This document shows, one piece after another, positions 1-63,357 of a DNA stretch of 64,000 nt. The notes beneath the pieces were generated by a model. The model made no database searches and was not told the origin of the DNA. It saw only the letters and a program-made list of their open reading frames with translations. The translations under genes were made by a program, and so were the position numbers. Source of the DNA: Terriglobales bacterium (lineage in GTDB: Bacteria > Acidobacteriota > Terriglobia > Terriglobales > SCQP01); contig JBOGKQ010000013.1 of NCBI GenBank assembly GCA_050747905.1, forward strand, positions 3,529-67,528, read 5' to 3'. Each line of letters opens with the position of its first letter. Position 1 is the first letter of the stretch.

Positions 1-3000
1 AGCGGGTGCGTAGGTGGTGGTACCGGGCACCAGGCATTGCTTGCCGTGACTGTTATACACCGACGCGAACGCCGCCGGATTCAGCCACTGGTAGTTGCCC
101 GCCTCGGTTCCGGCGACGGGAGTATTCCTCGAATAGGGGCTGACGCCGGTCAAATAATAGGCCGTGTTGTCCGGGCCGGTTCCGTTGTGCAGGATGTTCA
201 AGCTCGGGCTACCAACAAAGATCGGGTCGCCACCTTGCGAGAACGTGGACCCGGAAATCTGCCAGCCATTGACGATCTGGCCGAGCAGGGCCGAGCCGTG
301 CACATGCCATGGCAGCGCATAAGTATAGTTCGCGCTCAGGACGTTGAACGGCGTGCCCGACTGGTCGCGGTAGGTCTCGCTCACCGGGATGGAATCGAGG
401 AAGGGCGCGTTGGTCTGCAGCGCATGCGCCCAGGCGTAGTTGAGGCCGAGCGTGAAGCCATGATAGCTGCGCCAGGTTGAGCCGAGCTGAAGGCCATTGT
501 AGGTGGTATAGCCATCGTAACGATCCTGGCTGATGGAGGTGAACCGGGCGTCCGGGGTGACGCCGGCGGCCGAATAGTAGAACGGCGCGAAGCAGCCCGA
601 GCAAAGGTTCTGGTACGAGTTCGGGTCCACCGTATCCTCGTTGTGATAGCTGCGGTTGCCAACGTAGTTGGCTTTGACGGAGATGCTCTGTCCAAGTTGG
701 CGTTCAATCCCGAAGCTCCACTCATCCGCATAGGGCGCACTCAGCCCTTGCTGCGGCTGGATGGTCAGCCGCTGCACGGGAACGCAGGCGGTCGGCGGAG
801 CTCCGGGTGCGGTGCAGGAGGGCGCCTTGGCCGCAAAATTTGACTGGAACAGTTGATTCGCCGTGCCCATGGCGCTCACCACGCTGTTGGCCTGGGAGGG
901 ATCGTACAGCGCATAACACTGCGGATTGCCCGCCCCAGCGCCCAGGACCTCGAACGGACAGCCAGCCGCGCTCGGTCCGGTTCCAGTGCCATCGGTGGGA
1001 ATCGTGCCCAAATCGCCTTGGTCATAACCGCCGTTGTAGCTGGGATCGAAAGGGGCGTTGCGCGCCATGTTGTCAATCGCATCCGCCGGCGCCACGGCTT
1101 CAAACATTCCCCAACCGCCAGTAACGAGGGTGTTCTGCCACGGCTGCCATGAAAACGCCAGCCGCGGCTGCGCGAACACAAACGGAACATGGCTGAAAAG
1201 CTTGTTCGAGGGGCCGATGACGTTGGCAGGAGAGATACCCAGCGAATGCGTCATCAGCTCCCAGTCCTGCGGGTTGCCCAGTACCCCGGCGGGATCATGC
1301 GGATTGCTGTTATTGGTCAGGCGCACGCCGTAGATGAAGGTAAAGTTGCGGCTCATCTGCCAGGTGTCGCCGGCATAGGCCTCGATCGAATAGATGCGCA
1401 CCGGCTGGTCGGGATTGACGGGTACCGAGATGCTCGCGTCGGGCGCCACGCCGTAGTCGAACTCCGCCAGGCTGCCGGCGCTAATGTTGGGCTTTTCGCT
1501 GCCCTCGAAGTCATAATCGGTAATCCACTCGCGCAGGAAGTTGACGCCCACGCGGAACTGGTGGCTGCCCTTCACTATGCTCAGGTTGTCAATGACGCCG
1601 AAATTGGTGACGTTGCGTCCCTGTGGGAACGAGGTCGAGCCCAAAGTGTCCCACGGCGTGTTGAAGCGCAAGGGCTGCACCGCGTCCACCACGGACTGAT
1701 CGGCGTACTCGAACGGGGCGCTGTACCAGAGCTGGCTGAAGCTCAAGTCGTTCACGACGTCGGGGGAGAAGATGTGCGTCCAGTCGCCGTTGGTGCCCCA
1801 CTCGGGCTGGAACGAGTCCTGGTTGAAGATGGGGTTGATGGCGCTCAGCCCGGTGGCCTGCAAGCCGCGGTCGTTCGTGTAGCTGAACCAGAAGGTGTTG
1901 TTTTCGCCGGGGTGCCAGTCCACGCGTGTAATCAGCTTGTTTTCCCACGTCAGATTGCTGCCGCTGAAGGTTACCTGGTTGGCGCAGCCGCTGTCGGTGG
2001 GTATGAAGTTGGCGTCGCCCTTCGCCTGACCGCCGGCCACTTGCGGGTTGAAGGTAGCGTCCAGGCTGCCGTTGGGCAGGAGGTTGCAGCCAAACATGGG
2101 ATACGGCGTGGACTGCAGGGCGGGGTTGTTGATTTTATACAGGGAGAGCTCATGCGACTGGAACGCGGCTTCCTGCGGCTGGGGAGGTAGGTAAAGATAG
2201 TTGCCGTTTTCGCCACTGGCCACGCCCGGCTGCGTCGCACCGCTCACGGCGCAGTTACCCGTCGCCGGCGCGGTGCCGCCCCCGGACGTGGGATTGAAAT
2301 ACGTGGGATCGGTTTCACATCCGCCGACCAGGAGCTGCTGCTTGGCATATTGTTCGTAGCCTGCCGTGGGCATCAGCACCCCGGTGTCCACGACCGGCAA
2401 ATCAATCCGCGCGCCTTCGTCGTCCACGAAAAAGAACACTTTGCTGTGCGCGATAGGACCACCCACGCTGCCAGTGTAAAAGTTGACGTTGTCGAAGGGC
2501 TTGGGCCCCACCGGCGACGTCATCTTCTGGAAAGTGTCGTAGGCGTTGAGCACGCGGCCGTTCCACTGCTCGCTGAGGTTGCCGTGCCAACTGTTGGTGC
2601 CGTGCTTGCTGACGTAGTTGACGTTGGCGCCCTCGGAATGGCCCTGGTCCACCGAATAGGGGTTGGTGGCGACCGTCACCTCGGAGATATCATTGGCGCC
2701 CATCGAGAGGTTGGTGGGGCCGGAGTTGTTGATGCCCAGGTAGGGGTCATTGTAGCTGCCGCCGTCAATGGTGAAATTGCTGGTTGTGCCCGGCAGGCCA
2801 TTGTAGGTGGCATTGTAGTAGCTGCCATTTTTCGTGATCGTCGCCCCCGGCGTCAACTGCGCCAGGTAGGTCAAGTCGTTGCCCGGATTGGGCAGGTTTT
2901 CGATGGCTTGCGCGTTGAGCGTGGTCGAGATGTTCGGATTTTCCGGCTGCAGCAGCGGCGCCTGGCCGGTGACCTCGACAGTTTGCGAGGTCTGGCCGAT

Positions 3001-3423: not shown

Positions 3424-3503
3424 GGTGGCGCGGGCCCTGCGCGGCTGCTGCGCGCGGCCCTGCGCGCCGATTTTGCCCACGGTGCCAAGCGGCGTGAACC
3501 CCT
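3424..3503 (+). repeat. Dispersed intergenic repeat family, short copy (modules i+iv)
   Basis: ggtggcgcgggccctgcgcggctgc...gcgccgattttgcccacggtgccaagcggcgtgaacccc shares both terminal motifs with the long copies at 3562, 27628, 55181 and 62397. Confidence 0.7.
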
Positions 3504-3561
3504 CGATATGATCATGCTATCATTTTCTTACCTCCGGCGACCGCGTTTCGCGGCAACTTTA

Positions 3562-3812
3562 GGTTGGCGCGGAACTCAGCCCGGCTGCTTCGCCCTGCTG
3601 GAGTTGCGCCGGGCGGCTTGCTCGCGTCGGGTTGCCCGCCCTGTTGTGAGTGCGCAGGGCGGGTTGGGAGCCCTTGGCCCCAACCCGACGCTGCGCCTCG
3701 CCGGGGCCGCGCCCGCGCATTTCCCTGGGGCGCTCGCTGGGACACTCGCCCGTGCGGAATTCCGCAGCCCTGCGCGCCGATTTTGCCCACGGTGCAAGGC
3801 GGCGCGACCCCC
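3562..3812 (+). repeat. Dispersed intergenic repeat family, long copy
   Basis: Starts ggttggcgcgg, contains gggttgggagcccttggccccaacccgacgctgcgcctcgcc, and ends gattttgcccacggtgcaaggcggcgcgacccc. Collinear with 27628-27859 and with the reverse complements of 55181-55431 and 62397-62685. Confidence 0.8.
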
Positions 3813-3843
3813 GCACCGCGGCGCTTGCTACACTGAGCCTGAC

Positions 3844-6879: not shown

Positions 6880-6907
6880 AACAGGGATATGATAGTAGGT
6901 GCAGCTC

Positions 6908-6961
6908 GGGCGTTGGAGTTCGCCTGACCCAACCGCTCCTCACGAGCAGATGACTCCTACC
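6908..6961 (+). promoter_or_regulatory. Fluoride riboswitch (crcB RNA motif) aptamer
   Basis: GGGCGUUGGAGUUCGCCUGACCCAACCGCUCCUCACGAGCAGAUGACUCCUACC aligns with the B. cereus crcB aptamer GGCGAUGGAGUUCGCCAUAAACGCUGCUUAGCUAAUGACUCCUACC. It sits directly upstream of crcB. Confidence 0.85.
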
Positions 6962-6987
6962 GAATTTTTCGCGTCAGGAGTCTCGCC

Positions 6988-7422
6988 ATGCCCGTCCCTG
7001 CTTCCGAACAAACCGAACTTGTCCGCCATGCGCTTTCCGGTCGCGTGCTGGCACTCGGCATTGCCCTGGCAGGCGCCCTGGGCGCGCTCAGCCGCTGGGG
7101 CCTGGGACAGTTCTTCGAAACCCTGGCGGGCGGGCGCTATCCCTGGGGCACGCTGGCGGCCAACCTGATCGGCTGCTTTATGCTGGGCCTGGTCATGGAG
7201 GCGGGAGCGCGCAGCCACTGGATGAGCGGCCCGGTGCGCCTCATCCTGTCAGTCGGCTTCATCGGCGCCCTGACCACGTTCTCCACCTGGGAATTCGAGA
7301 CCCTGCACATGGCCCGCGGTGGCGATGTGCTGCTGGCCGCCGGCAACTTCGCCGTCAATGTCTTCTTCGGTTTCCTGCTGCTGTGGGCCGGCGCCCGCCT
7401 AGCCGCGGTGTGGATGCCGTAG
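6988..7422 (+). CDS. crcB: Fluoride ion channel CrcB/FluC
   Basis: 144 aa with 4 TM segments. PWGTLAANLIGCFMLG and GFIGALTTFSTWEFE are typical CrcB motifs. AGGAG at 6976-6980 precedes the ATG. Confidence 0.9.
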   Translation: MPVPASEQTELVRHALSGRVLALGIALAGALGALSRWGLGQFFETLAGGRYPWGTLAANLIGCFMLGLVMEAGARSHWMSGPVRLILSVGFIGALTTFSTWEFETLHMARGGDVLLAAGNFAVNVFFGFLLLWAGARLAAVWMP

Positions 7423-25247: not shown

Positions 25248-25544
25248 ATGGAAGCTTTGGGATTGATTGAAACCAGGGGTCTGGTGGGCTCGATCGAGGC
25301 TGCCGATGCCATGGTGAAGGCCGCCAACGTGGTCCTGCTGGGCAAGGAATACATCGGTGCCGGCTACGTCACGGTGATGGTGCGCGGGGACGTGGGCGCG
25401 GTCAAGGCCGCCACCGACGCCGGCGCCGCCGCCGCCCGCCGGGTGGGCGAGCTGGTGAGCGTGCATGTGATCCCGCGCCCGCACAGCGAAGTCGAAAAGA
25501 TCCTGCCGAACAAAGGCGTCGTCGCCGCCGACAGTAAAAAGTAG
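25248..25544 (+). CDS. Bacterial microcompartment shell protein, BMC-H (PduA/EutM/CcmK-like)
   Basis: [59 protein letters not shown] is a canonical Pfam00936-type sequence. AGGAGG lies upstream. Confidence 0.9.
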
Positions 25545-25559
25545 CGCGCCTGAGGCACG

Positions 25560-27254
25560 ATGGGAGACCCATCCCAGCCGGTCGCCGAGGCCCGCGAGCT
25601 GATCGAGCGGGCGCACGCCGCCTGGCAGACCTACCGCGAGTTTTCTCAGACCCAGGTGGACGCCATCGTGGACGCCATGGCGCAGGCCGCCACCGCCCAC
25701 GCCGAGCGCCTGGCGAAGCTGGCGGTGGCAGAGACCACCTATGGCAAGGTGGCCGACAAGACCCAGAAAAACCTCTTCGCCTCCGAACGTGTCTACGCCG
25801 CCATTCGCGGCATGCGCACCGTCGGGGTGCTGCGCGAGGACCGCGCCGCGGGCATCCTCGAGCTGGGGGTTTCCATGGGCGTGGTGGCGGCCATTCTGCC
25901 CTGCACCAACCCCACCTCCACCGCCATCTACAAAATCCTGATCGCCCTCAAGGCCGGCAACGCCATCGTGCTCAGCCCCCATCCCTCCGCCCTGCGCTGC
26001 ATTTGCGAAACCGTCGGCCTGATGCGCCAGGCGGCCATCGCCCAGGGCGCGCCCGATGGCCTCATTGGCTGTTTCTCCATGCCCACCCGCGAGGGTACGC
26101 AGGCGATGATGTCGCACCCCAGCTCGAAGGTGATCCTCGCCACCGGCGGCATGGGTATCGTCAAAGCCGCCTACAGCTCGGGCAAACCCGCCTTCGGGGT
26201 CGGGCCGGGCAACGTTCCCGCCTTCGTGGATCGTTCCGCGGATGTGCCCGATGCGGTCGCCAAGGTGGTCGCCGGCAAAAGCTTCGACTGGGGCACCCTC
26301 TGCTCCTCCGAACAGTCACTGGTGGCCGAAACCGCCCTGCGTGACGCCGTTCTGGCGGAACTGAAAAAGCAAAATGTCTACCTGATGTCCGCCGAGGAGG
26401 CGGAGAAACTCGCCGCCCTGCTGATCCACAAAGAGACGTTTTCGGTCAATCCCAAATGCGTGGGCCAATCGCCGCAGAAGCTCGCCGCCATGGCGGGCTT
26501 TGGCGGTCGCGTGGGAGCGGACCTGCGGGTGCTCGCGGCCGAGCTGGCGGGCATGGGCAAGGCGCATCCGCTCTCGGCGGAAAAACTTTCGCCGGTGCTG
26601 GCGCTGTTTTTTCTTCCCGACCGCGTCCGCGCGATGGAGCGCTGCCGCGACTTGCTGCACTTTGGCGGTCTCGGCCACACCTGCGTCATTCACGCCCGCG
26701 ACGAGGCGGTCATCCGCGATTACGGGGCCCGCATGCCCGCCTATCGCGTGGTGGTGAACTCGCCCGCTCCGCAAGGCTCCATCGGCCTGACCACGAACCT
26801 GTTTCCGGCGATGACGCTCGGCTGCGGCGCCCTCGGCGGCAACATCACCAGCGACAATATCGGGCCCCAGCATTTGATGAACATCAAGCGCATCGCCTGG
26901 GATCGCGGTTCCCTGCCCGCGGCGGCGGCGGGGAGGGAGGCGGAGCCCTCCACCTGCACCTGCCCGCACGCGGCGCCCCAGGATGACCTGCGCGCCAACA
27001 TTGAACGCATCCTCGCCGAGCGCGGGATACTCCCGCCCGGCCAGCCCGAGGCAGGCTCAGGCCCTCAGACGGCGCCGCCTGCCTTTACACCCCCGCCGCT
27101 GCCTCCCGCGCCCGCTCCCGTCCCCTTTGTCTGCGAAGCCGACGTCCGCGATGCGATCCAGTCCGGCAAAAAAATCGCGATCGGCCCCAAGACCATCATC
27201 ACCCCCGCGGCCCGCGACCTCGGCCGCGAGCGCAACGCCTTCGAAACGGTGTGA
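25560..27254 (+). CDS. CoA-acylating aldehyde dehydrogenase (PduP/EutE-like) with about 120-aa C-terminal extension
   Basis: [14 protein letters not shown] and GTLCSSEQS (catalytic Cys context). The extension holds the amphipathic [17 protein letters not shown], a Pro-rich linker, then [33 protein letters not shown]. Confidence 0.85.
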
Positions 27255-27627: not shown

Positions 27628-27859
27628 GTTGGCGCGGGCCCCAGCGCGGCTGCGCCGCGCGCCCCGCTTATGCTCGCGTCGGGTTGGGGGCCCTTGGCCC
27701 CAACCTGACGCTGCGCCTCGCTCCCACCCCAAGGCGCAGGCGCCTTGGGGGCCCCGGGGGTGGGGCCGCGCCTGCATGTCTCCCCGGGGGCGGGCCGCCG
27801 TGCCGAATTTCGCAGCCCTTCGCGCCGCTTTTGCCCACGGTGCAAAGCGGCGCGACCCC
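27628..27859 (+). repeat. Dispersed intergenic repeat family, long copy
   Basis: gttggcgcgggccccagcgcggctgc ... gggttgggggcccttggccccaacctgacgctgcgcctcgc ... gaatttcgcagcccttcgcgccgcttttgcccacggtgcaaagcggcgcgacccc. Confidence 0.85.
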
Positions 27860-27922
27860 TGCGAACTGACAATTCGCCGCATGCTAAACTGGCTACGTCT
27901 CCGGCGCCTTGGCGCGTGCCGC

Positions 27923-28000
27923 GTCCCCGTCGTCTAGCCCGGCCTAGGACACCGCCCTTTCACGGCGATAACACGGGTTCGAATCCCGTCGGGGACGCCA
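27923..28000 (+). tRNA. tRNA-Glu (anticodon UUC), CCA encoded
   Basis: GTCCCCGTCGTCTAGCCCGGCCTAGGACACCGCCCTTTCACGGCGATAACACGGGTTCGAATCCCGTCGGGGACGCCA. The acceptor stem pairs GTCCCCG with CGGGGAC. Anticodon loop CUUUCAC; T-arm GGTTCGAATCC. Close to E. coli tRNA-Glu. Confidence 0.9.
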
Positions 28001-28017
28001 ACAAAATAAAGAGCTTA
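27954..28017 (+). repeat. 64-bp direct repeat, left copy (tRNA-Glu 3' 47 nt plus 17 nt downstream); attL-like
   Basis: gccctttcacggcgataacacgggttcgaatcccgtcggggacgccaacaaaataaagagctta is identical (64/64 by eye) to 31198-31261. Confidence 0.9.
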
Positions 28018-29087: not shown

Positions 29088-29474
29088 CTAATGCTTTTTC
29101 GACTCGAATAGCCTTTTGATCGCCTCCAGGCCGGCTTTTTGTCTCTTGACTTCCGCATCGCTGGCGCCGTCGATCGTAAGCTCGGCGTTAACGTCAAAGT
29201 CCTTTGGACGCCCATCCCTCTGCCACGCGGCGTGTAGCTCGGCGTGTCGAGCCCGTGCACTAACCAAACCGTGCAGGGCGACTGGCGCTGCCGGGCACAG
29301 ATTGCACAGTGGTTGGAGTGTGAAATATGGGGCGACGTCCCATCCTGCCTGGAACGCAGCGTCAGCGCTTTCGAATATTTCGGCATAACCGCAACAGAGA
29401 CATGTATACGTTGGCACGACTTCGGCACCTCGTCTTCTAGGCTTCTTCAGACCCAGGGACCGCCCGGGCTCCAC
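29088..29474 (-). CDS. Hypothetical Cys-rich protein
   Basis: 128-aa ORF with CLCCGY...CNLC. Overlaps the AbiEii 3' end by 28 nt, so the true start is probably internal. No recognisable family. Confidence 0.3.
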   Translation of the reverse strand: MEPGRSLGLKKPRRRGAEVVPTYTCLCCGYAEIFESADAAFQAGWDVAPYFTLQPLCNLCPAAPVALHGLVSARARHAELHAAWQRDGRPKDFDVNAELTIDGASDAEVKRQKAGLEAIKRLFESKKH

Positions 29475-30364
29475 TGCGCAGAAAACGGCTCCGCGGACCT
29501 GGCATATGCGAAGGGTTCGTAAAGGAAGCTCTGCAATTCTCGTACCACCTGCTCCAGGGATTCGAACTCGCTCTGTCGGCTTTTCATCACGAATGCCTTC
29601 CAGTTCGCCTGAGCCTTCGCATCCCGAATAAACCTCTCGCTGAGCGCCACAATCTCGCCATCCGGGAGAGGGGTGGCGCGGCGGCGAAACGTAGCACGGA
29701 GAGCAATGGCCAGCGATTCACCCTCAAAGGCAACGCGGCGGGCAGCCATGGCGAGGTCGCAAAAATCCTTCATCCGGCTATTCGAGATGCCGAGATCGAC
29801 CATGGCTTCGGCTTTCTCGGCCACGATAGTTTCTGTGGGATACGCGAGAACATGCGGCGCCACCATATCGGGGAGGAGTGTCGGAAATGCCAAGTCCAAT
29901 GCCGCAGGGGTGATCGCGTCGCCAAATCCGACGTCAATCTGGAGGTGGATGCGGGCGTCGGCAAGATTGGCCTGAATGACGGCACGCAGCCCGCCATAGC
30001 GATTGTCTTCCCGGATCGGATGCACCGCCAGAGTATTTGCATCGAAAACGAGTCCATCGTCATCAGCGCCCACGGAGACGATCTCGCGGAGTGCCGTATC
30101 GATGGCTGTCGCAGTGGTTTCACCCAAGCCGAGGAGATCAAGGTCTCTTGTGGCCCGATACTGTTCCCCGATGCGCACCGCGAATAGCATGGCACCCTTG
30201 AGGACAAACCGATCGCGGTACTTCGATATGGAAAGCCGATAGAGGAAACGCTCGGCGCCGTAGTTCATCAGCGTCAACGTAAAATCTTCGCGGCGCTCCT
30301 TGGCAATGTTCAAAAGGCGCGCCCTTACAGACGCGGAAACGTTCACCGGCGTCTTCCGTTTCAT
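29447..30364 (-). CDS. AbiEii/AbiGii-type nucleotidyltransferase toxin (type IV TA, DUF1814)
   Basis: SVRARLLNIAKERREDFTLTLMNYGAERFLYRLS...FVLKGAMLF...RATRDLDLL...IDVGFGD is the typical AbiEii N-terminal and NTase pattern. Confidence 0.85.
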   Translation of the reverse strand: MKRKTPVNVSASVRARLLNIAKERREDFTLTLMNYGAERFLYRLSISKYRDRFVLKGAMLFAVRIGEQYRATRDLDLLGLGETTATAIDTALREIVSVGADDDGLVFDANTLAVHPIREDNRYGGLRAVIQANLADARIHLQIDVGFGDAITPAALDLAFPTLLPDMVAPHVLAYPTETIVAEKAEAMVDLGISNSRMKDFCDLAMAARRVAFEGESLAIALRATFRRRATPLPDGEIVALSERFIRDAKAQANWKAFVMKSRQSEFESLEQVVRELQSFLYEPFAYARSAEPFSAQWSPGGPWV

Positions 30365-30957
30365 GACATCCCGTCCCAGTAAGGGCGCATGACTTTGGCA
30401 ACCCTCAGTCGATGCGCCTCACGCCACAGATCATCAACCGTGCCCTTGCGCAGGCGGCGATAGTCTCTAAGGGCCTCGACGGCGACATCAATGCCAATTC
30501 TGTTGCGGAACTTGAAGCAGTCCGCCACCGTCCTTGCCGGACTCGTCACGCGCACCTTGACACCGTCGATATTGTGGACTTCGATGCCCCCCGCTAGGGC
30601 TGCGCCCGAGACTCGGACAGTTCGGACCGGCGTGAAGTCTACTCGTGGTATTCCTGCGCGTCTGTCTACCGCGAGCCAAACCTCACGGGGATTCTCGGTA
30701 CCGAGGCTATGAAACCGAAGCGCGGTGAGCAGACAGAACGTGGCTTTAGGGACGCGTTTCGCCACTTCTGCCAGTGTGTGGTGTTCGGTCAGCTTAATGG
30801 TAGGTAGTGCATACAGTCCGCGCCCGACCCGCGTCAGTTCCCCCCGGCGCGTCAGCCGACGAACATGCTCGGGGTGGACGCCAACGGCTGTGGCTTCGGA
30901 CAGCCGAAACAGCCGTTTTTTTTGAGCCAGCCGAAGAATGCGTGCCTGGGGCTCCAT
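30361..30957 (-). CDS. AbiEi-family antitoxin/transcriptional regulator
   Basis: VRRLTRRGELTRVGRGLYAL...CLLTALRFHSLGT...ITSPARTVADCF. 4-nt overlap with the AbiEii start. Start taken at MEPQARIL. Confidence 0.85.
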   Translation of the reverse strand: MEPQARILRLAQKKRLFRLSEATAVGVHPEHVRRLTRRGELTRVGRGLYALPTIKLTEHHTLAEVAKRVPKATFCLLTALRFHSLGTENPREVWLAVDRRAGIPRVDFTPVRTVRVSGAALAGGIEVHNIDGVKVRVTSPARTVADCFKFRNRIGIDVAVEALRDYRRLRKGTVDDLWREAHRLRVAKVMRPYWDGMS

Positions 30958-31197
30958 CGCAATGTGTAATATTACTACCATTTGAATTTAAATGGTAGCG
31001 ATTCGACACGTCCGACCGGACGCCGGTTCGTCGAAACGGATTCCGCCCACATCGGAGCACCAACCTTGGTTACCACCCCGCAAAGGCGGTAACCGTTCAT
31101 GGTCCATTCATGGTCCAGTAGCCGTTCCCCAGGGTGCCAAACACGGTTTTGGGAGCCACCCGTGCCGTTGATTGTCAATGGGTTACGTGCAGTGGCG

Positions 31198-31261
31198 GCC
31201 CTTTCACGGCGATAACACGGGTTCGAATCCCGTCGGGGACGCCAACAAAATAAAGAGCTTA
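31198..31261 (+). repeat. 64-bp direct repeat, right copy (tRNA-Glu 3' fragment); attR-like
   Basis: Identical to 27954-28017. Lacks the tRNA 5' half, so it is not a functional tRNA. Confidence 0.9.
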
Positions 31262-31262
31262 A

Positions 31263-31302
31263 GTTGGGGACCCTTGGCCCCAGCCCGGCGCTGCGCCTCG
31301 CT
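31263..31302 (+). repeat. Dispersed repeat family, core-module fragment
   Basis: gttggggacccttggccccagcccggcgctgcgcctcgc matches module ii (gggttgggggcccttggccccaacccgacgctgcgcctcgc). Confidence 0.6.
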
Positions 31303-31310
31303 GAGCGCGG

Positions 31311-33734: not shown

Positions 33735-34670
33735 TTAGTTGGCCTTGGTCTCGGTAAGCGCCGCGATGATTTGGGAGGCAACGCGGGTGATGGATTCCAG
33801 CGATTCGCGGAGGGTGTCGCGGTCGCCATCGTAAAGGCTGATGTAGTCGGCGGAAGCGGTATTCATGTCCAAACCGACAGACAGTCCCACCGCGTAGGCC
33901 ACGGCCTCGGCTTCGGTTTCCTTGACCTTGCGGCTCAGTTCCTTTCGCCGTTCCCCGTCGTGCAGCAGTTCGTGTGCGAGTTCATGCACCAGCACGGAGA
34001 ATTCGCGGGCCGGTTCCAAGCCAGCGAGAATGTAGACCTTGCCCTTGGCGCTCAGCCCTTCCGCGCCGTCCAGGTTCTCCTTGTACTCCAGCGCGATGCC
34101 CTTCCGCTCGTACAGCGCCCTGATTCCTTCGAGGTCGCCTTCGAGGTTGGCCCCCGGATCGCCTTCCGCCTGGGGCGCGGATGGCAGCGGCTCCCCCACG
34201 GTCTGCGCCACATCGAACACATAGGCCACGCGGAAGCCGCACACCCGCTGCGAAGAGCCTTCCTGCGCATCTTCGGGGTCCGGCCGCTTTGTCAGGATGG
34301 GAGCCAAAATGTGGATGGCCCTTTCGTCCTTGCAAACCTGCCGTCCCAACGCCTGCCAGCGTTGGTACCCGGCGACATGGGTTGACTCGGGCCGCTGCGC
34401 GAGGATCAGAAGCTGGTTGCAAAAGCTGTAGCGATGAAACCGCGACATGACGCCCAGGTACTGCTGTATGGCATCGCTCCGGCCAGCTTCCAGCGCGTCC
34501 GCCAGCCGGTTGATAGCCTCTTCGCAGAGGATTTGCGCCTTGCTCTTTTTCTCAGGGGCATTTCTCTCAGCGCCCCCGCGCGCGCCGCCTGTGGACTCCG
34601 CCGGAAGCGTTGAGCCCGTGGCGGGCTGGAAGGAAGAAGTGCTTTCGGTGGTGATGATTTGAGAATTCAT
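33735..34670 (-). CDS. ardC: ArdC-like antirestriction protein (ssDNA-binding N-domain plus HExxH metalloprotease)
   Basis: RFHRYSFCNQLLILAQRP...GYQRWQALGRQVCKDERAIHILAP is a DUF1738-type N-domain. LVHELAHELLH is the zincin motif. Start MNSQ (cat 34668-34670) is preceded by GGAG. Confidence 0.85.
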   Translation of the reverse strand: MNSQIITTESTSSFQPATGSTLPAESTGGARGGAERNAPEKKSKAQILCEEAINRLADALEAGRSDAIQQYLGVMSRFHRYSFCNQLLILAQRPESTHVAGYQRWQALGRQVCKDERAIHILAPILTKRPDPEDAQEGSSQRVCGFRVAYVFDVAQTVGEPLPSAPQAEGDPGANLEGDLEGIRALYERKGIALEYKENLDGAEGLSAKGKVYILAGLEPAREFSVLVHELAHELLHDGERRKELSRKVKETEAEAVAYAVGLSVGLDMNTASADYISLYDGDRDTLRESLESITRVASQIIAALTETKAN

Positions 34671-34953: not shown

Positions 34954-35085
34954 CAAAAGCTGTAGTGATGAAACTGCGACATGACGCCGAAGAAATGCAG
35001 CATGGCATCGTGCTGGTCGGCTTCCATCGCATCCGCCCGCCGCTTGATCGCCGTTTCGCAGAGGATTTGCGCCTTGCTCGTTTTC
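34954..35085 (-). pseudogene. Truncated second ArdC N-terminal fragment
   Basis: About three quarters identical by eye to 34420-34550. Reads ...KAQILCETAIKRRADAMEADQHDAMLHFFGVMSQFHHYSF* and ends abruptly. Confidence 0.6.
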
Positions 35086-35184
35086 ACAGCGCCCCTTTCG
35101 GGGGCAAAGCCAAAGGCGCTCGCTTGCGACGCATCGAGATCGAGGTCCCGGTTGAGGTGGCGGGCTATACTGCCACTACCGCCA

Positions 35185-49407: not shown

Positions 49408-49468
49408 GCGCCGCCGACTTTCGCGTCGGCTTTGCCCACGGGGCAAACGGCGCGACCCCCGCGAGCGG
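49408..49468 (+). repeat. Dispersed repeat family, module iv copy
   Basis: gccgactttcgcgtcggctttgcccacggggcaaacggcgcgacccccgcgagcgg. Confidence 0.65.
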
Positions 49469-49565: not shown

Positions 49566-52500
49566 TTACGGCATGTAGATTATAGATTGCACGGCATAGT
49601 TGCCGTTGCTGTCCTCGATCGAGATCTGCCAGATGTAGGTCCCTCCGCTGGTCAGGCTTGCCACGGAAGGCGTATTGGAGCTGTCTCCGGTCGGATCGGT
49701 CCCCCAGACGATTTGCGTGATCGAGCTGGAGAAGTAGCTGCTGTTGGAGTTCTGGCTCGGGATCTGCCAGATCGTGTTGTTGTTCGAATCCACAATCTGG
49801 AACGAATAGGTGTAATTGCTGGCATCGGTCGGATCGGTCCAGGTGAAGGTCGGCGTGGTGCCGCCGGTCGCCGACAGGTTGGTCGGGAACTCGGTGATCA
49901 GGGCCGTAACCTTGGTGGTGAGCGTGTCCGATGTGCCGTCACTGTAGTTGATCTGGAAGCTGTAGGTGTCGCCGACGACCGGAGCGATGGGGATGTTGAG
50001 GTTGTACTCGAACCCCCCGCCGCAATAGTTGCCGCAAACGCTGACGTCCACGGGAACCACGTTCGGGCCGGACTCCAAATACACCGACACCGGCAGTTTG
50101 ATATTTCCCGTCACCGTGAATTGAAGGCTGTAGTTTTGCCCGATCTGGCTGCCGCTCTGGTTCTCGGACTGATAGTTCTGGGTGGCCACCGCGGCGGTGG
50201 CGTTGGCGCTGGCCAGCGTCAGGTTCAAGGTGGTGGCTCCAGTAATCGTCTGGCTCGCCTTCACGCCGCTGCCGCCGACGTTGGTGATATCGCCGGCGTC
50301 CACCACGCCGTCTTTGTTGTTGTCCAGAATGCCGACCGCGGAGCAGTTGGAGCCACTGGGCACTTGGACTGTGTAGGCTTGCGGGCTGACCGGAGAGGCG
50401 ATGTAATCGCCGTAGAATTGGCCCGCTTTCTGATCGTAGCAGCCGGCGTAGAGAGGGCCGGTAGCGGTTCCGGTGAAGGTGACCGCGCCGGATACCGTGT
50501 CGGCGCCGGTGGGCGCGCCGACCGTCACCGCGCTGGAGACCGCGGAATAGGAACTGGTCGAGCTTCCGGCGGTGCCGGAGGCGCGGAAATAATAGGTGCC
50601 GTTGGCGAGGCCGTTCACCAGCCAGACGGTGCTGCTATCGGGGCCGGTCGCGGGGAAGGTCTTGCTGCCGGTGACGGTGCCGAACGAGGAGTCCGTGCTC
50701 CACTGCAGGGTGTAGGAGGTTGCCAGCTCGAGGCCGTTGTTGTCTACCTGGGGATTGTAAATCACCAGCGCGCCGGTGTTGACGCCGGCTAGCGTTGCCA
50801 GTTCGGGGCCGAGGGTGAGGGTTACCGCCGCGGCAGGGGTCATGGTGACGGACGCGCCGGTTACGTCCGCGTTGGAGACCGTAATGCCGGTGGTGCTGCC
50901 GCTCGGGTTGGACGCGTTCGGGGCGCCGTAGCCCAAGTTGTCCATGCGCGCCTGCAGGGTATAGGTGCCGGGCGCCACGCCGCGGATGGTGAAGGCGCCC
51001 GTCGAGGAAATGCTGGTGCCGGGGACGGTGTAACTGGGGCAGCTGTTGTTGCTCAGGGTGAGGTAAATCCGGCCCGTGTCCGAGCCGCTGTAGCTGACCG
51101 TGCCGGAGACGGTGTAGCCCAGGCCGACGCTGAAGTTCTCGCTGGTGAGGTTGGCGGTGGCGATGGTGACCGCCTGGGTGGCGGGCGAGAAGGTCGTAGT
51201 TGCGGAACCGGGCGCGCTGTAGGTTGGCGTCAGCGTATAGGCGCCGGTGGCGAGGCCGGTGATGGTGAAGTTTCCGCTGCCGTCGGTGGTGGCCGTCCCC
51301 ACCGTTTTGTTGTTCGAGTCGGTGGCGGTGATGGTGACGCCGGAGACGGAATTGCTGCCGGTGCAGCTGGCGAACGTTTGCACCGACCCGCTAGCCGAAT
51401 AGCTCGTGGTGACGGCGATGGTGTAGGTCTTCGGCCCGACGGTGGCGCCGTTGCTATCGGTCACCGACGCGGTGAAGGTGACGGTGCCGGTCGCGGTGGG
51501 CGTTCCGGTGACGTTCAGGGTGCTGGTGCCGGTGTTGGAGACGCTGAGGCCCAAGCCGTTGGTGAGGGCGACGGCGGCGCCGGTGGTGGCGAGGGCGGCG
51601 CCGTTGACCGTCCAGGTGTAGCCCGGTACGCCGCCGGCGGCGTTGATGGCGCCGGTGTATGCGCCGCTGGTGGAGGCGGCGGGCAGCGAAGCCGGGTTCG
51701 GCGCCGGCAGCGCCAGCGCGGCATAGGCCGCGAGGTTCAGGCTGGCGGTGCCGGCCGCGCCGCTGGAATCCTTCACCTGGAAGGTGACGCTGCCGCTGCC
51801 GGTGGCCGTGGGCGTGCCCGAGAGCACACCCGCGCTCGATAGCGTCAGGCCGATCGTGGTCAGCGTGCTCTGGCCCGCAGTGACCGACCAGGCGTAGGGG
51901 GCGCCGCTGCCGCCGCTGGCCGCCAGCGTGGTTGTATATGCGGTGCCGACGTAGGCGGGCGGGAGGGTGGCAGTGGTGACTGAGGGCGCATTGCTGACGG
52001 TGAGCGAGAGCGCCTGGGCGGCCGAGGTGACCCCGCCGATGGTCACCGTGACGGAAAAGTTGAACGGCCCGCCGGTCGCGGTGGGCGTGCCGCTGATGAT
52101 GCCGGTCGCCGGAGCCAGGGTGAACGGCGCGGGCAGGGTGCCGCTGGACACCGCCCACGTCGCCGCGCCGGTCTGGCCATCGGCATTCGCAGTAAGCGTG
52201 GTGGTGTAGAGGACTCCGACCGAAGCCGTCGGAATCGAGGTCGTGGTCACGTCCGGCGCGCCGGCGCCGAGGGTGAGCGTCAGCGACGCCTGCTGGGTTT
52301 GTTTCGGCGTGCCCGCGTCGCTGACGGTGAAGGCGATGGCGCCGGTATTGGTCGCCGTGGGCGTGCCCGAGATGGCGCCGGTGGCCGCGTTCAGGGTCAG
52401 ACCGGCCGGCAACGTGCCCGACGACCAGACATAGGGGGTCACGCCGCCGCTGGCCGCCAGCGTGGCCGAATAGGCGACGCCGGCGGTGCCTGCGGGCAGC

Positions 52501-53444: not shown

Positions 53445-53568
53445 GGAAAACCTCCGCCCTAGTCAGGGAATTCGGCTGCAGTAACTTATAGACTCCGCGA
53501 TATATCAAAGTCAAGCGTGTGTGCGGGACCAGGTAACTTAGTTGCCAACCCCGGCTGCGCCCAACCCT

Positions 53569-53628
53569 GGGGTCGCGCCGTTTGCGCTGCGGGCAAAGCC
53601 GGCGCGAACAGGCCGCGAAATTCGGAAC
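53569..53628 (-). repeat. Dispersed repeat family, module iv copy (inverted)
   Basis: ggggtcgcgccgtttgcgctgcgggcaaagccggcgcgaa...gaaattcgg is the reverse complement of the module iv consensus. Confidence 0.6.
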
Positions 53629-54674
53629 CGGCAATTGATAGGCGCGGGACTCGGGCGGTCTGCCAGAGCGCCGCTTGGCCGATGTCGCTTGCGTGCTTAT
53701 AGCACTAGGGGCAACGTTGTCTCCGGTGTTGCGGGCGGCACGTTCTGCGGCACACAATTTCATCGAATATGCAATTCTCAATTCCCGGTTAGCTCGCTTG
53801 CATTCTAATCCGGGCTGCCAAACATTAACGGGCACATTCTCCGCTCCCGAGCTTGGACTCGTCTGGTCGTAGCCGGTCCCATACGTCTTCAGTTGACATA
53901 TGCCTTGCACGCCGATCGACCAACGCGCTACGATCTGGGCTATGGAGCCCGCTCCCGATGAGAGCGCGACGCGCCAGCAACATCACCAAGCCCGGCCAAC
54001 CCCAGGGGTCCGCACCGCGGCAGCCCCTCCTGCCAGTGGTCAAGCGGCGGTTGTGCAGCGGCCACGAGCAGGGCGCCTGCTGCAGCCTGGGCCAGCTATT
54101 TCGGCGGCAGCAACGCCCGCGCTGAAGTAACCAGCAATGGCGGCGAACCCGTCGAGGTAACGCTCGGCGACGTACGCGGGCCGAGGATAGCGGCTTGGGC
54201 GACATCGGAACCGAGCGGCATGCTCTCGACCGCGGTCGCCGCTCTCGTCGGCTGTGGGCCGCCGCCCGCCTATCATCTCCGCGGTCATTGGCTCATTCCG
54301 CCGCAAGTTGCGACTCGCCTCAAAATCCAGACAATCCGTCAGTGGGTCGGCTCGCTATTTCGGTTGCGCCAGTAATGGGCAACTTCACTGGCTCGGTGCC
54401 ACATCGCCTGTTCGTCGGCCTGCAGCAATTGCACACGTCACTCGATTCCGCGGTGGCAATGGGCCGCTTGACTCCGCCGGCCGAGCAACGCACTCTTCGC
54501 GGGCCGGGCTGGGGCACGGCAACCGGCGCCGGCGGGATGGCGCGAGGCGTGGCGGCGGCGAGAACTCTGACCGAGGTCTCGCTGAGACGACCGCGCCCGC
54601 TACTGCCGGCTGCGACGAACTTGTACTCGCGCACAACACCGTTTCTTCTTCCTGCTAAGGACGTGGAGCGTGAC

Positions 54675-55180: not shown

Positions 55181-55431
55181 GGATCGCGCCGCTTTGCACC
55201 GTGGGCAAACTCGACGCGAAGGGCTGCGAAATTCGGCATGGGCGAGCGTCCCAGCGAGCGCCCCCGGGGAAACATGCAGGCGCGGCCCCAGTCCCGGGGC
55301 CCCCGAGGAGCTTGCGCCTTGGGGTGGGAGCGAGGCGCAGCGTCGGGTTGGGGCCAAGGGCCCCCACCCGCCCTGCGCAGTCCCAGCAGGGCGAAGCAGC
55401 CGCGCTGGGGCCCGCGCCAACATCGATCGCA
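55181..55431 (-). repeat. Dispersed intergenic repeat family, long copy (inverted)
   Basis: The reverse complement reads gttggcgcgggccccagcgcggctgc...gggtgggggcccttggccccaacccgacgctgcgcctcgc...gaatttcgcagcccttcgcgtcgagtttgcccacggtgcaaagcggcgcgatcc. Confidence 0.85.
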
Positions 55432-57251: not shown

Positions 57252-57295
57252 AAAGCGGAAGCTGTGACAATCGTCGTGCGCGAGATTCAGCTAAG

Positions 57296-57388
57296 GCTGG
57301 CGGCGGGGGCTGGGGCTCATGGCCCCAACCCGACGCTGCGCCTCGATTTTGCCCACGGAGCAAAGCGGCGCGACCCCCGCGAGCGGTT
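57296..57388 (+). repeat. Dispersed repeat family, modules ii+iv
   Basis: ggctggcggcgggggctggggctcatggccccaacccgacgctgcgcctcgattttgcccacggagcaaagcggcgcgacccccgcgagcgg. Confidence 0.75.
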
Positions 57389-58624: not shown

Positions 58625-58650
58625 GGTTGGCGCGGGCCCCCGCGCCAACC
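58625..58650 (+). terminator. Perfect 12-bp inverted repeat directly after the stop codon (terminator-like hairpin)
   Basis: ggttggcgcggg-cc-cccgcgccaacc begins 1 nt after the TGA at 58622-58624. There is no strong T-tract (ttggg). Its left arm equals the terminal motif of the repeat family. Confidence 0.45.
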
Positions 58651-59185: not shown

Positions 59186-59471
59186 ACGGATTTCCCCCTT
59201 TGTTTAGATTCCCAATTGGGTTCGCTATGCCGAGGGAGAGGTACACCTCCGTACCTCGGGGCCGCCGCGAGCGATCGAGCGATTATATCCTGGCCGGCAG
59301 TTCGCGGGGCTCGCGCCGGGTTGGGGCCAGGGGCGGGCAACCCGCCGACGTTATGTCAATCGCCACCCGAAACTCTGCTGCTGAGCTCGGGTTAGTACTT
59401 CCATTGCGCTCAAGTTGGTATTGAAAGCAGATCGAAGAAGTCAGCCACGCCCTCACTTCATTCCAGTCATC

Positions 59472-62336: not shown

Positions 62337-62396
62337 CGCTCGGGTGGCGCGAACCGCTAACCTCAACCGCGGCGGCGGCGTCCCGTCCATTTCGCA

Positions 62397-62685
62397 GGGG
62401 TCGCGCCGCTTTGCACCGTGGGCAAAATCGGCGCGAAAGCCGCGGAACCGAGTGAGGCGGCCCGCCCCCGGTTGGGTAAGCGGCGCGGCCCCTCACGGGC
62501 AGCCGCCTGGCCGCCCACGGCCAAGCGGCGCCCTGGCAGACCGCCGCAAGCGGGCTGAGGGCGGCCGCAGGCCGCCCGAGCCCCGCGCCTATCATTCGGG
62601 GCGGCTCATAAGCGGGGCGCGCGACGCAATTCGCCCTGCGCAGTCTTCCAGCAGGGCGAAGCCGCCGCGCTGGGGCCCGCGCCAA
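62397..62685 (-). repeat. Dispersed intergenic repeat family, long copy (inverted)
   Basis: ggggtcgcgccgctttgcaccgtgggcaaaatcggcgcgaa ... ccgcgctggggcccgcgccaa carries both terminal modules in inverted orientation. Confidence 0.8.
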
Positions 62686-62705
62686 TATTGACGCTCGCCC
62701 GGATT

Positions 62706-63275
62706 TTATCTTTTCCCGTGCTGCAGCGTCAGGCACATCGCCACCGCCGTGGTGGGGTTGATGGCGTCGCCCGAGAACTGAATCTTGCGGATGATTCCCT
62801 GCTTGTCGACCACGAAGGTCGTGCGCTGCGCAAACTGCATGGGGTATCCCGCCATCGTCCGTGGCGGCTCCAGAATCCCGTAGCGCTGCTCCACGATCCC
62901 GCGCATGTCGCTCAGCAGCGGGAACGTCACCCCGATCTGCTTGGCGAAAACGCCATTGGCCGCCGGACTGTCCATGCTGATCCCGAAAATGACCGCGCCG
63001 TTCTGCTGGATTTTAGCCAAATCAACCTGATAGGCCTTGAGTTCCTTCGTTCAACCGGGTGTGAACGCGAGCACGTAAAACGCCAGAATTACGCTCTTCT
63101 TGCCGCGATACTCGCTCAGGTGCACCGGCTTGAACTGGTTACTGGGCAGGGTGAAGTCCGGCGCCATCTGCCCCACCTTCAGTTGCGTGCGTATGAGTTG
63201 CGGCGCTTGCGCCGCGGCCGCCGCCGTCAGCAGCAGGGCCGTCACCAAGGCGGCTAGAAAAGCGGGCTTGCGCAT
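62706..63275 (-). CDS. Secreted peroxiredoxin (AhpC/TSA/Bcp-like) with in-frame TGA at the peroxidatic-Cys position: candidate selenoprotein, or a nonsense pseudogene
   Basis: One continuous frame reads [25 protein letters not shown]...[49 protein letters not shown]... The TGA is at 63051-63053. The family consensus is F(Y)P..FTPGCT.E. GGGAGAA lies upstream of the ATG at 63275. Confidence 0.7.
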
Positions 63276-63357
63276 CGGGTTCTCCCTGCGCAGCAGTATA
63301 ACCCGGCCCGCTCCTTTCGCAGGCAGGAAAAAAAGCGGCACCGGGCGAGGGGCTCGC

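Follow-up and report, generated by a model that had tools for sequence, protein, structure and literature searches.

A family of non-coding repeats of about 200 bases, each a stack of hairpins, occupies intergenic sites in one group of soil Terriglobales, and we describe it here from its copies in a 64,000-nucleotide stretch of DNA from a Terriglobales bacterium (the window) and in related genomes and metagenomes. The family is real and is apparently an undescribed member of an ordinary bacterial kind of repeat (REP/BIME/MITE-like); a full-text search of a library of papers for the family's sequences found none that contains them. It is notable mainly for being conserved between species better than the genes that surround it. 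A dispersed, non-coding, structured family of the REP/MITE kind had been predicted from an earlier reading of the window, and that prediction is borne out. The explanation towards which we lean, with modest confidence, is that the element is a lineage-specific, non-autonomous, REP/BIME-like repeat with ends on which an enzyme acts in trans, probably while the DNA is single-stranded.

Copies of the repeat in the window

An nhmmer profile was built from 13 copies, all of them from genomes other than that of the window because circularity was to be avoided, and was then run against the window. It recovers three full copies (E values from 2e-36 to 2e-47), both termini of a fourth (E 6e-12 and 6e-6), the interior of which has diverged, and five short derivatives, at 3454-3506, 31262-31305, 49414-49464, 53567-53637 and 57286-57382. 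Probes for the individual modules, with up to three mismatches allowed, gave 6, 3, 3 and 2 matches where shuffled sequence leads one to expect 0.00, and direct reading of the letters agrees with the original prediction of four long copies that carry four modules in a fixed order. The positions first given for these copies were approximately right and are refined here to 3563-3817(+), 27628-27865(+), 55181-55421(-) and 62391-62686(-); the left end of the 55 kb copy, which had been put at 55431, lies at 55421.

The copy at 27628-27865 on the + strand (profile E 1.9e-47, no mismatch to any of the four module probes) is the nearest to the consensus in the window and reads, in order, left terminus, H1 hairpin, module ii hairpin, one optional hairpin, module iii and right-terminal hairpin iv. 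Its + strand folds more stably than shuffles of the same sequence (z = -5.6), and the copy lies between a divergent zf-UBP gene (start 27566) and a tRNA-Glu gene (27923). The full-length copy at 3563-3817(+) (profile 3563-3814, E 2.4e-36) has a mutated left terminus and extra optional hairpins, and ends 26 nt upstream of a dTDP-glucose 4,6-dehydratase-like gene (ATG 3844). In tandem with it, 56 nt upstream, stands an internal-deletion derivative at 3424-3507(+) that joins a left-terminus-like segment, recognised by eye only, to hairpin iv (profile 3454-3506, E 3.9e-9). At 55181-55421(-) the 3' arm of H1 is replaced by an optional hairpin, GCCCTGC...GCAGGGC, in an otherwise full-length copy (E 3.5e-38); we considered this hairpin as an independent mobile unit and rejected the idea, since it occurs only inside copies. 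The fourth long copy, at 62391-62686(-), is internally diverged with both termini intact, so that the profile matches only its ends, and is placed between two convergent genes, one of them a split AhpC/Bcp gene and the other pro-kumamolisin-like.

Some seven short copies had been predicted as well; five are found by the profile and a sixth by orthology, and the seventh, a palindrome, only probably belongs. A solo module ii hairpin at 31262-31305(+) (E 7.8e-6) directly follows the attR copy of the tRNA-Glu 3' end. Solo right-terminal hairpins iv are found at 49408-49468(+) (E 1.4e-7), with a TTTGCCC/GGGCAAA variant of the apical stem, and, with a CCGAAT foot, at 53567-53637(-) (E 4.1e-9); the second is inverted with respect to the first, and a gene of 1292 amino acids (He_PIG) lies between the two. 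At 57286-57383(+), between an AHSA1-like and a subtilase-like gene, module ii is joined to hairpin iv in a deletion derivative seen as two adjoining profile matches (E 9.5e-5 and 7.8e-9). The sixth, a decayed derivative at 59298-59350(-) upstream of a cupin gene, fuses a module ii-like hairpin to the right terminus (GCGCGAGCCCCGCGAACTG); the profile misses it, and it was recognised by hand alignment and by an intact copy at the orthologous place in a related species. Finally, a perfect palindrome with a 12-bp stem at 58625-58650, between convergent genes, consists of the left-terminal 15-mer GTTGGCGCGGGCCCC and its inverse; the profile misses this as well, and the exact 15-mer makes it a probable member of the family.

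Every copy lies between called genes, as judged from the gene calls and Pfam, in agreement with the prediction that all would be intergenic. The ORFs that cross copies have no Pfam matches, the indels among copies are not multiples of three and copies occur in either orientation, a pattern incompatible with part of a protein-coding gene family, so that here too the prediction holds. That the repeats are part of such a family, a local duplication within the contig or an artefact of its assembly is an explanation we set at practically nil: the clustering of copies in 49-63 kb is all that speaks for it, whereas copies with unrelated flanks are present in other genomes and metagenomes and an independent Logan assembly of the window's organism has the same junction.

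Distribution of the family

When species-representative genomes were scanned with a 23-mer probe taken from hairpin iv, 16 loci were found, 15 of which are in MAGs of Terriglobales/Terriglobia: DATNED01 (9), JBOGKM01 (6) and JBOGJT01 (1). The corresponding metagenome scan gave 13 loci, 10 of them with the element, or 7 once duplicates are removed (L023, L025 and L029 repeat L012, L020 and L006). Three loci, L011, L019 and L027, were discarded as chance matches of the probe in coding DNA of unrelated organisms. Soil metagenomes and at least three further Terriglobales/Terriglobia MAGs thus contain full copies with the same order of modules, at loci unlinked to one another, and the family is not confined to the window, as had been foreseen; viral contigs and plasmids were also scanned and contain no match to the element. 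The family is resident in one subclade of the Terriglobales (Acidobacteriota).

It had been suggested that the repeats bracket accessory gene cassettes, and this does not stand as a general rule. Copies in related genomes have mostly housekeeping genes beside them (NuoM-like, alanine racemase, adenylosuccinate lyase, biotin carboxylase, CysK-like), along with aminotransferase and peptidase genes. It is true that one copy stands on each side of the tRNA-Glu islet, but the islet has att repeats of its own.

Many copies are found at the ends of contigs. A contig that matches the window, CDBHFJ010000065.1 (MAG GCA_974122065.1), breaks off within the 62.4-62.7 kb copy, and another, a Logan contig of the window's organism, stops 24 nt inside the copy at 27.6 kb. 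This is the behaviour of a multi-copy repeat.

Anatomy and predicted fold

The anatomy of the element was derived from an alignment of 17 copies and the consensus fold of that alignment. The core measures 199 nt, the length of the shortest intact copies (L014, L022, L024 and L026a). It opens with a nearly invariant left terminus of 23 nt (GTTGGCGCGGGCCCCAGCGCGGC), which in the consensus fold (GTTGGCGCGGGCCCCA) pairs over a long range with module iii (TGGGGCCGCGCC) and so encloses H1 (GCGCGGC-TGC-GCCGCGC) and the module ii hairpin. Beyond a linker, CGGGG pairs with CCC..CCG in another closing helix, and inside it lie a variable hairpin, the invariant C(C/G)GAATTTCGCAG and hairpin iv, which is long and bulged. 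The foot before hairpin iv, C(C/G)GAAT, is invariant, and ACCCCCGCGA-NN-GG, after the hairpin, forms the right end of the element. Like the left 23 nt, the right 60 nt or so, which hold hairpin iv, are nearly invariant across four genome groups, the repeated unit being a bulged hairpin of 57 nt within the 199-nt composite. H1 begins 16 nt from the left end and hairpin iv finishes 13-17 nt from the right end.

The fold comprises four or five helices, and 95.3% of the cells of the alignment fall in standard pairs, against 39-47% in controls with slid partners. Pair changes on both sides are concentrated in the helix of module ii and the other helices hardly vary; between genome groups, the stems of the variable hairpin are compensated (GTGAAAGCGCC/GGCGCTTTCAC, GCAGGACGCGCC/GGCGCGTCCTGC and GCAGAAGCGCC/GGCGCTTCTGC). 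The base pairing is real. Among 36 pairs predicted on both strands, G·T appears in nine columns and A·C in one, and the strand whose folding matters is therefore the one that reads GTTGGCG...CGCGA.

Optional hairpins are inserted at fixed sites: within the loop of H1, following GCTTATG, following module ii, ahead of the foot and directly following CCGAAT(T). The hairpin of the H1 loop (L013 at about 800-934 (-), L010, L020 and L028) is about 30 nt long, CCGGCC(A)CGGCTGTGACTGCGCCGGGCCGG, with TGC on both sides that may be a 3-nt duplication; in L013 the insert is made of three tandem units of 41 nt. In L028 the variable hairpin of one copy has, inserted in its loop, a different small element of about 150 nt (1630-1790) with terminal inverted repeats GAAGTGGTCTCAAAAA / TTTTTGAGACCACTTC.

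The short copies have arisen by internal deletion, through slippage from one GC-rich arm to a similar one, and fall into the classes i+iv, ii+iv, solo ii and solo iv. Two of the deletion derivatives, that at 3424 in the window and L017, keep both ends, and copies that are truncated, in tandem, partial or internally deleted are plentiful.

Conservation and orthologous sites

Between genomes, intact copies share 83-91% identity; within a genome they share 92-97%. For the flanking DNA, locus L001 (DATNED) is syntenic with 20.2-25.4 kb of the window at 69% nucleotide identity, and loci L039 and L040 (CCXETJ, JBOGKM) with 19.9-27.2 kb at 77%. Since the copies, at 83-91%, are more alike than the coding DNA beside them, at 69-77%, the element is under stronger constraint than nearby genes, and these comparisons of sequence indicate that selection acts on the sequence of the element.

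Two orthologous sites can be compared between species. Upstream of tRNA-Glu the copy of the window is intact and the JBOGKM/CCXETJ species has a decayed 3' half, both directly preceding a conserved GCATGCTAAACTG that is probably the -10 region of the tRNA promoter; upstream of the cupin gene it is the JBOGKM species that has the intact copy and the window that has a deletion relic. Both sites are therefore occupied in both species, each by one intact and one decayed copy, and this fits old, fixed, gene-converted copies as well as it fits ongoing transposition. In the more distant loci L043 and L044 (JANRHI/DATBOM) the spacer between zf-UBP and tRNA-Glu is 182 nt long and gives no match to the element at E values up to 100, so the element was gained at this site within the clade. 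No clean pair of filled and empty sites with alignable flanks was found, the unoccupied L043 spacer being too diverged for junctions to be placed. After gain, copies decay or stay near the consensus of their genome.

These observations bear on a rival explanation, in which the copies would be fixed host DNA sites, either bound by a nucleoid or topology protein or serving as recombination hot spots, as proposed for BIMEs; they would be kept alike by gene conversion and would no longer be mobile. Occupation of both comparable sites in two species is what it would lead one to expect, as is the high identity within genomes, and two loci speak for it. In L014 (1141-2574) the genes on both sides of the copy, a beta-lactamase-family ORF that runs from profile position 87 and the C-terminal part of an unknown protein on the opposite strand, appear truncated, which suggests that the copy is a rearrangement breakpoint; and the copy of L001 lies within a 2.8 kb insertion relative to the window. 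Gene order differs without any copy too, however, as in L040, where four genes stand between the aldehyde dehydrogenase gene and zf-UBP, and no binding protein is known. Furthermore, an asymmetry of wobble pairs between the strands is not expected of a site in duplex DNA, and the many decaying copies argue against each site being needed. We regard fixed host sites as an improbable account of the family.

Gene context and transcription signals

About 21 copies are informative as to their context: seven lie between divergent genes, three between convergent genes and, among co-directional genes, eight have the orientation of the genes and three are opposed to it. Several fill the entire spacer from stop to start codon (L006 and L010). 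Two divergent promoters flank the copy nearest to the consensus, which is upstream of the -10 box conserved at tRNA-Glu; since this copy need not be transcribed there, its position favours maintenance at the level of DNA.

Consensus scans found no sigma-70-like promoter and no intrinsic terminator that coincides with a copy or adjoins one. Hairpin iv was itself considered as an intrinsic terminator and rejected, as it is followed by ACCCCCGCGA with no T-tract and no copy has a terminator-like site. The proposed role of the repeats as a transcription signal, be it terminator or promoter, is thus unsupported by these scans.

The main rival to recognition of the ends in trans is that the family is a multi-copy structured RNA, either a cis element co-transcribed with its neighbours, with a part in processing or stability or as an insulator, or a family of small RNA genes. 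Much of what has been set out above would suit such an RNA: a + strand fold far more stable than shuffles (z = -5.6 for the 27628 copy), two long-range closing helices with 95% of cells paired, G·U pairs that greatly exceed A·C and conservation above that of coding DNA; the G·T excess and the multi-helix fold are indeed equally expected of a functional RNA. The same may be said of the co-directional copies, eight against three in the orientation of the genes, and of those that fill their spacers. This bias in orientation is weak, however, and not significant, and would also be expected of single-strand transposons. The RNA is weakened as an explanation because transcription signals are lacking in and next to the copies, because copies occur in all four gene contexts, seven of them between divergent genes and the best-preserved one of the window upstream of the -10 box of tRNA-Glu and of a divergent gene, and because decayed, truncated, tandem, partial and internally deleted copies are so abundant. 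Covariation is, moreover, confined to one helix while the others are invariant, and there is no match in Rfam even at E values up to 10. Taken together, we think it unlikely that the family is at heart an RNA.

Junctions and the search for an enzyme

The junctions of 18 full copies show no consistent direct repeat that could be a target-site duplication (TSD). Nor are there significant terminal inverted repeats (TIRs): the left 30 nt score 9 against the reverse complement of the right 30 nt, where shuffles average 7.15 and 17.6% of them reach 9 (p about 0.18). The left flanks are A/T-rich (AAT, ATT, AAA, CTA, TCG and others) and not conserved as a target. With no TSD, no significant TIR and no conserved target, no footprint of transposition is visible.

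A search for a transposase of the IS200/IS605 or RAYT type had been proposed along with the original prediction, and it finds none in the window or in the 29 loci hit by the probes (L001-L029). Here tblastn with the E. coli RAYT and six acidobacterial TIRYT proteins (PMC3733652) detected no RAYT, and a motif regex applied to six-frame translations detected no HuH-Y1 protein. In about 0.3 Mb examined, no left and right ends of the element were seen to enclose an ORF.

Acidobacteria do encode RAYT-like genes (PMC3733652), and they encode class 3 HuH-Y1 genes, beside which stand hairpins that have a CnGA foot and may be present in many copies (PMC6006769). A profile search for RAYT-like proteins returned about 8000 homologues. 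Three acidobacterial loci of this kind that we inspected (L030-L034) are flanked by a different REP, with hairpins GGGTGCCCCAGGTCTCG...GAGACCTGGG that are absent from the window and from L001-L029. The RAYT-like (PF01797) genes of L030-L033 belong to Acidobacteriaceae/Terracidiphilus MAGs and are flanked, at about 2870-2970 and at 3484-3500, by GGGTGCCCCA(C/G)GTCTCG-n-GAGAC(G/C)TGGG. By their sequences the inspected RAYT-like genes show no link to the family, and a lineage-specific enzyme may still exist.

Recognition in trans, as we would envisage it, proceeds as follows. The conserved termini would be cis-acting sites, recognised on one hairpin-folded strand by a trans-acting enzyme encoded elsewhere in the genome, for which our best guess is an HuH-Y1 endonuclease (RAYT-like or 'class 3'). 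This enzyme would copy or re-homogenise the elements, the interiors of which would be free to vary and decay. Conserved ends around a variable interior, derivatives that keep their ends, a consensus particular to each genome, multiplicity, gain within the clade, the wobble asymmetry and the lack of a footprint are all to be expected of an element recognised in trans on one strand. By analogy, its geometry, with subterminal hairpins and neither TIR nor TSD, resembles that of the IS200/IS605- and REP-type systems that use HuH-Y1 enzymes. Against this reading stand the lack of any HuH gene or transposase in the window and in L001-L029, the unrelated REP beside the RAYT-like genes inspected and the absence of any visible footprint of transposition.

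Comparison with known repeats

By architecture, not homology, the family belongs with the mosaic interspersed repeats of the BIME/BOX/RIME class. It resembles the BIME/REP mosaics of Enterobacteria and the REPIN-RAYT systems in being extragenic, hairpin-forming, multi-copy and modular with optional units, and further in its genome-specific consensus, its long-lived, vertical inheritance, the lack of a TSD and a presumed recognition as single strands. The unit is nonetheless a multi-helix composite of 199 nt, where a REP is a palindrome of 20-40 nt or a simple inverted doublet, and the 5' GT[AG]G/CGTC tag of REPs stands at no hairpin foot of the family consensus. In the loci examined, no RAYT gene flanked by the repeats of the family was found, unlike in REPIN-RAYT systems. 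Classical REPs tend to avoid the spacers between divergent genes, where copies of this family are frequent. Whereas REPINs are closely spaced inverted doublets, the family has only two inverted pairs, both with their members far apart (490 nt in L009, and 4.1 kb between the 49.4 and 53.6 kb copies of the window); tandem arrangements also occur.

The BOX elements of Streptococcus pneumoniae and the RIME elements of Rhizobium likewise have conserved end modules around a variable or optional middle, are 100-300 nt long and strongly folded, and are intergenic and non-coding with no known dedicated transposase. The family differs from them in its unrelated sequence and phylum, in ends that are not mutual inverted repeats and in being conserved across genera.

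With the PATEs derived from IS200/IS605 the family shares subterminal hairpins at both ends, strand asymmetry and deletion derivatives that keep the ends, and like them it has neither TIR nor TSD. Compared with PATEs, however, the left junction lacks a conserved tetra- or pentanucleotide, the hairpins of the two ends do not resemble each other and the loci examined contain no relative of TnpA or TnpB. The hairpins that flank class 3 HuH-Y1 genes in Acidobacteria and Planctomycetes share a phylum with the family and are described as 'atypical' structures that can reach high copy number (PMC6006769). They have a CnGA foot, to be compared with the invariant CCGA/CGGA foot of hairpin iv, in which only n varies; the match, of a four-base motif only, is a lead.

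Other classes were compared as well. The element lacks the two hallmarks of a MITE, as 18 full copies have no TSD and the termini are no more alike than shuffles; of the earlier description as MITE- or REP-like, the structured dispersed repeat stands, and the hallmarks of MITEs (TSD and TIR) and the GTAG/CGTC tag of REPs are not found. The element is not an integron attC site, for it starts with GTTGGCG, which departs from GTTRRRY at two positions, it has no initial RYYYAAC and its copies lie in both orientations; the scanned ORFs that neighbour copies include no integrase domain. No copy matches an Rfam family, including Acido-1, Acido-Lenti-1 and HEARO, at the gathering score, and with E values up to 10 the best copy yields only a chance match to a miRNA (E 8.1).

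The tRNA-Glu islet and other features of the window

A perfect direct repeat of 64 nt, at 27954-28017 and 31198-31261, duplicates the 3' end of the tRNA-Glu gene and bounds the islet, a separate insertion of 3.2 kb with low GC (58-60%) that is delimited by this repeat and not by the element. The islet carries an AbiEi/AbiEii toxin-antitoxin pair (29447-30981), and its scanned ORFs contain no integrase domain.

The block at about 33.7-49.3 kb encodes ArdC-N, an MmeI/Eco57I-type restriction-modification protein, a ResIII helicase-like protein of 857 amino acids, a RepB primase, two T2SSE (VirB11-like) ATPases and a TraG/TraD coupling protein; its GC is lower, at 58-62%, and it looks like an integrated conjugative or mobilisable element. 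A solo hairpin iv stands at its right edge. Around the end of the ArdC-like gene there is a direct repeat of 136 nt (34420-34555 and 34954-35089), the copies of which are 84% identical and 534 nt apart.

The microcompartment shell protein (PF00936) and aldehyde dehydrogenase genes at 25248-27254 are in a synteny conserved across several Terriglobales (L001, L039-L044), with lineage-specific insertions of 2.8 kb in L001 and of four genes in L039/L040. A fluoride riboswitch at 6900-6966 (Rfam RF01734, 41 bits) lies directly upstream of the ORF 6988-7422. The AhpC/Bcp-type peroxiredoxin at 62706-63341(-) is split into an N-terminal part (63051-63341) and a C-terminal part (62706-63020) and is either a frameshifted pseudogene or an assembly error; L001 has a distant AhpC homologue (41% identical) that a copy of the element follows, as in the window. 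The tRNA-Ser(GGA) called by ARAGORN at 51639-51715(+), inside the opposite-strand gene for the 1292-residue He_PIG/Ig-repeat protein, has no Rfam support and is probably a false positive.

Conclusions

The finding alone alters no established view. Its practical side is that the repeats fragment MAGs, as one public MAG contig and one Logan contig end in them, so that a model of the family would help to assemble and annotate genomes of Terriglobales, soil bacteria that are abundant and poorly cultured. An element that is 83-91% identical where genes are 69-77% identical is, furthermore, a useful case for persistence by transposition in trans or by gene conversion. The HuH-Y1 enzymes of Acidobacteria are uncharacterised, and the family also offers a concrete candidate for their substrate. 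It is a long shot, though one with consequences, that the 199-nt unit is the cis substrate, or the folded RNA or ssDNA partner, of a single-copy enzyme, for example a class 3 HuH-Y1, within a long-lived, vertically inherited system like REPIN/RAYT. If this were true, all described REPINs would be several times smaller than this unit and simpler in structure, and these bacteria would be keeping a repeat more conserved than their own genes.
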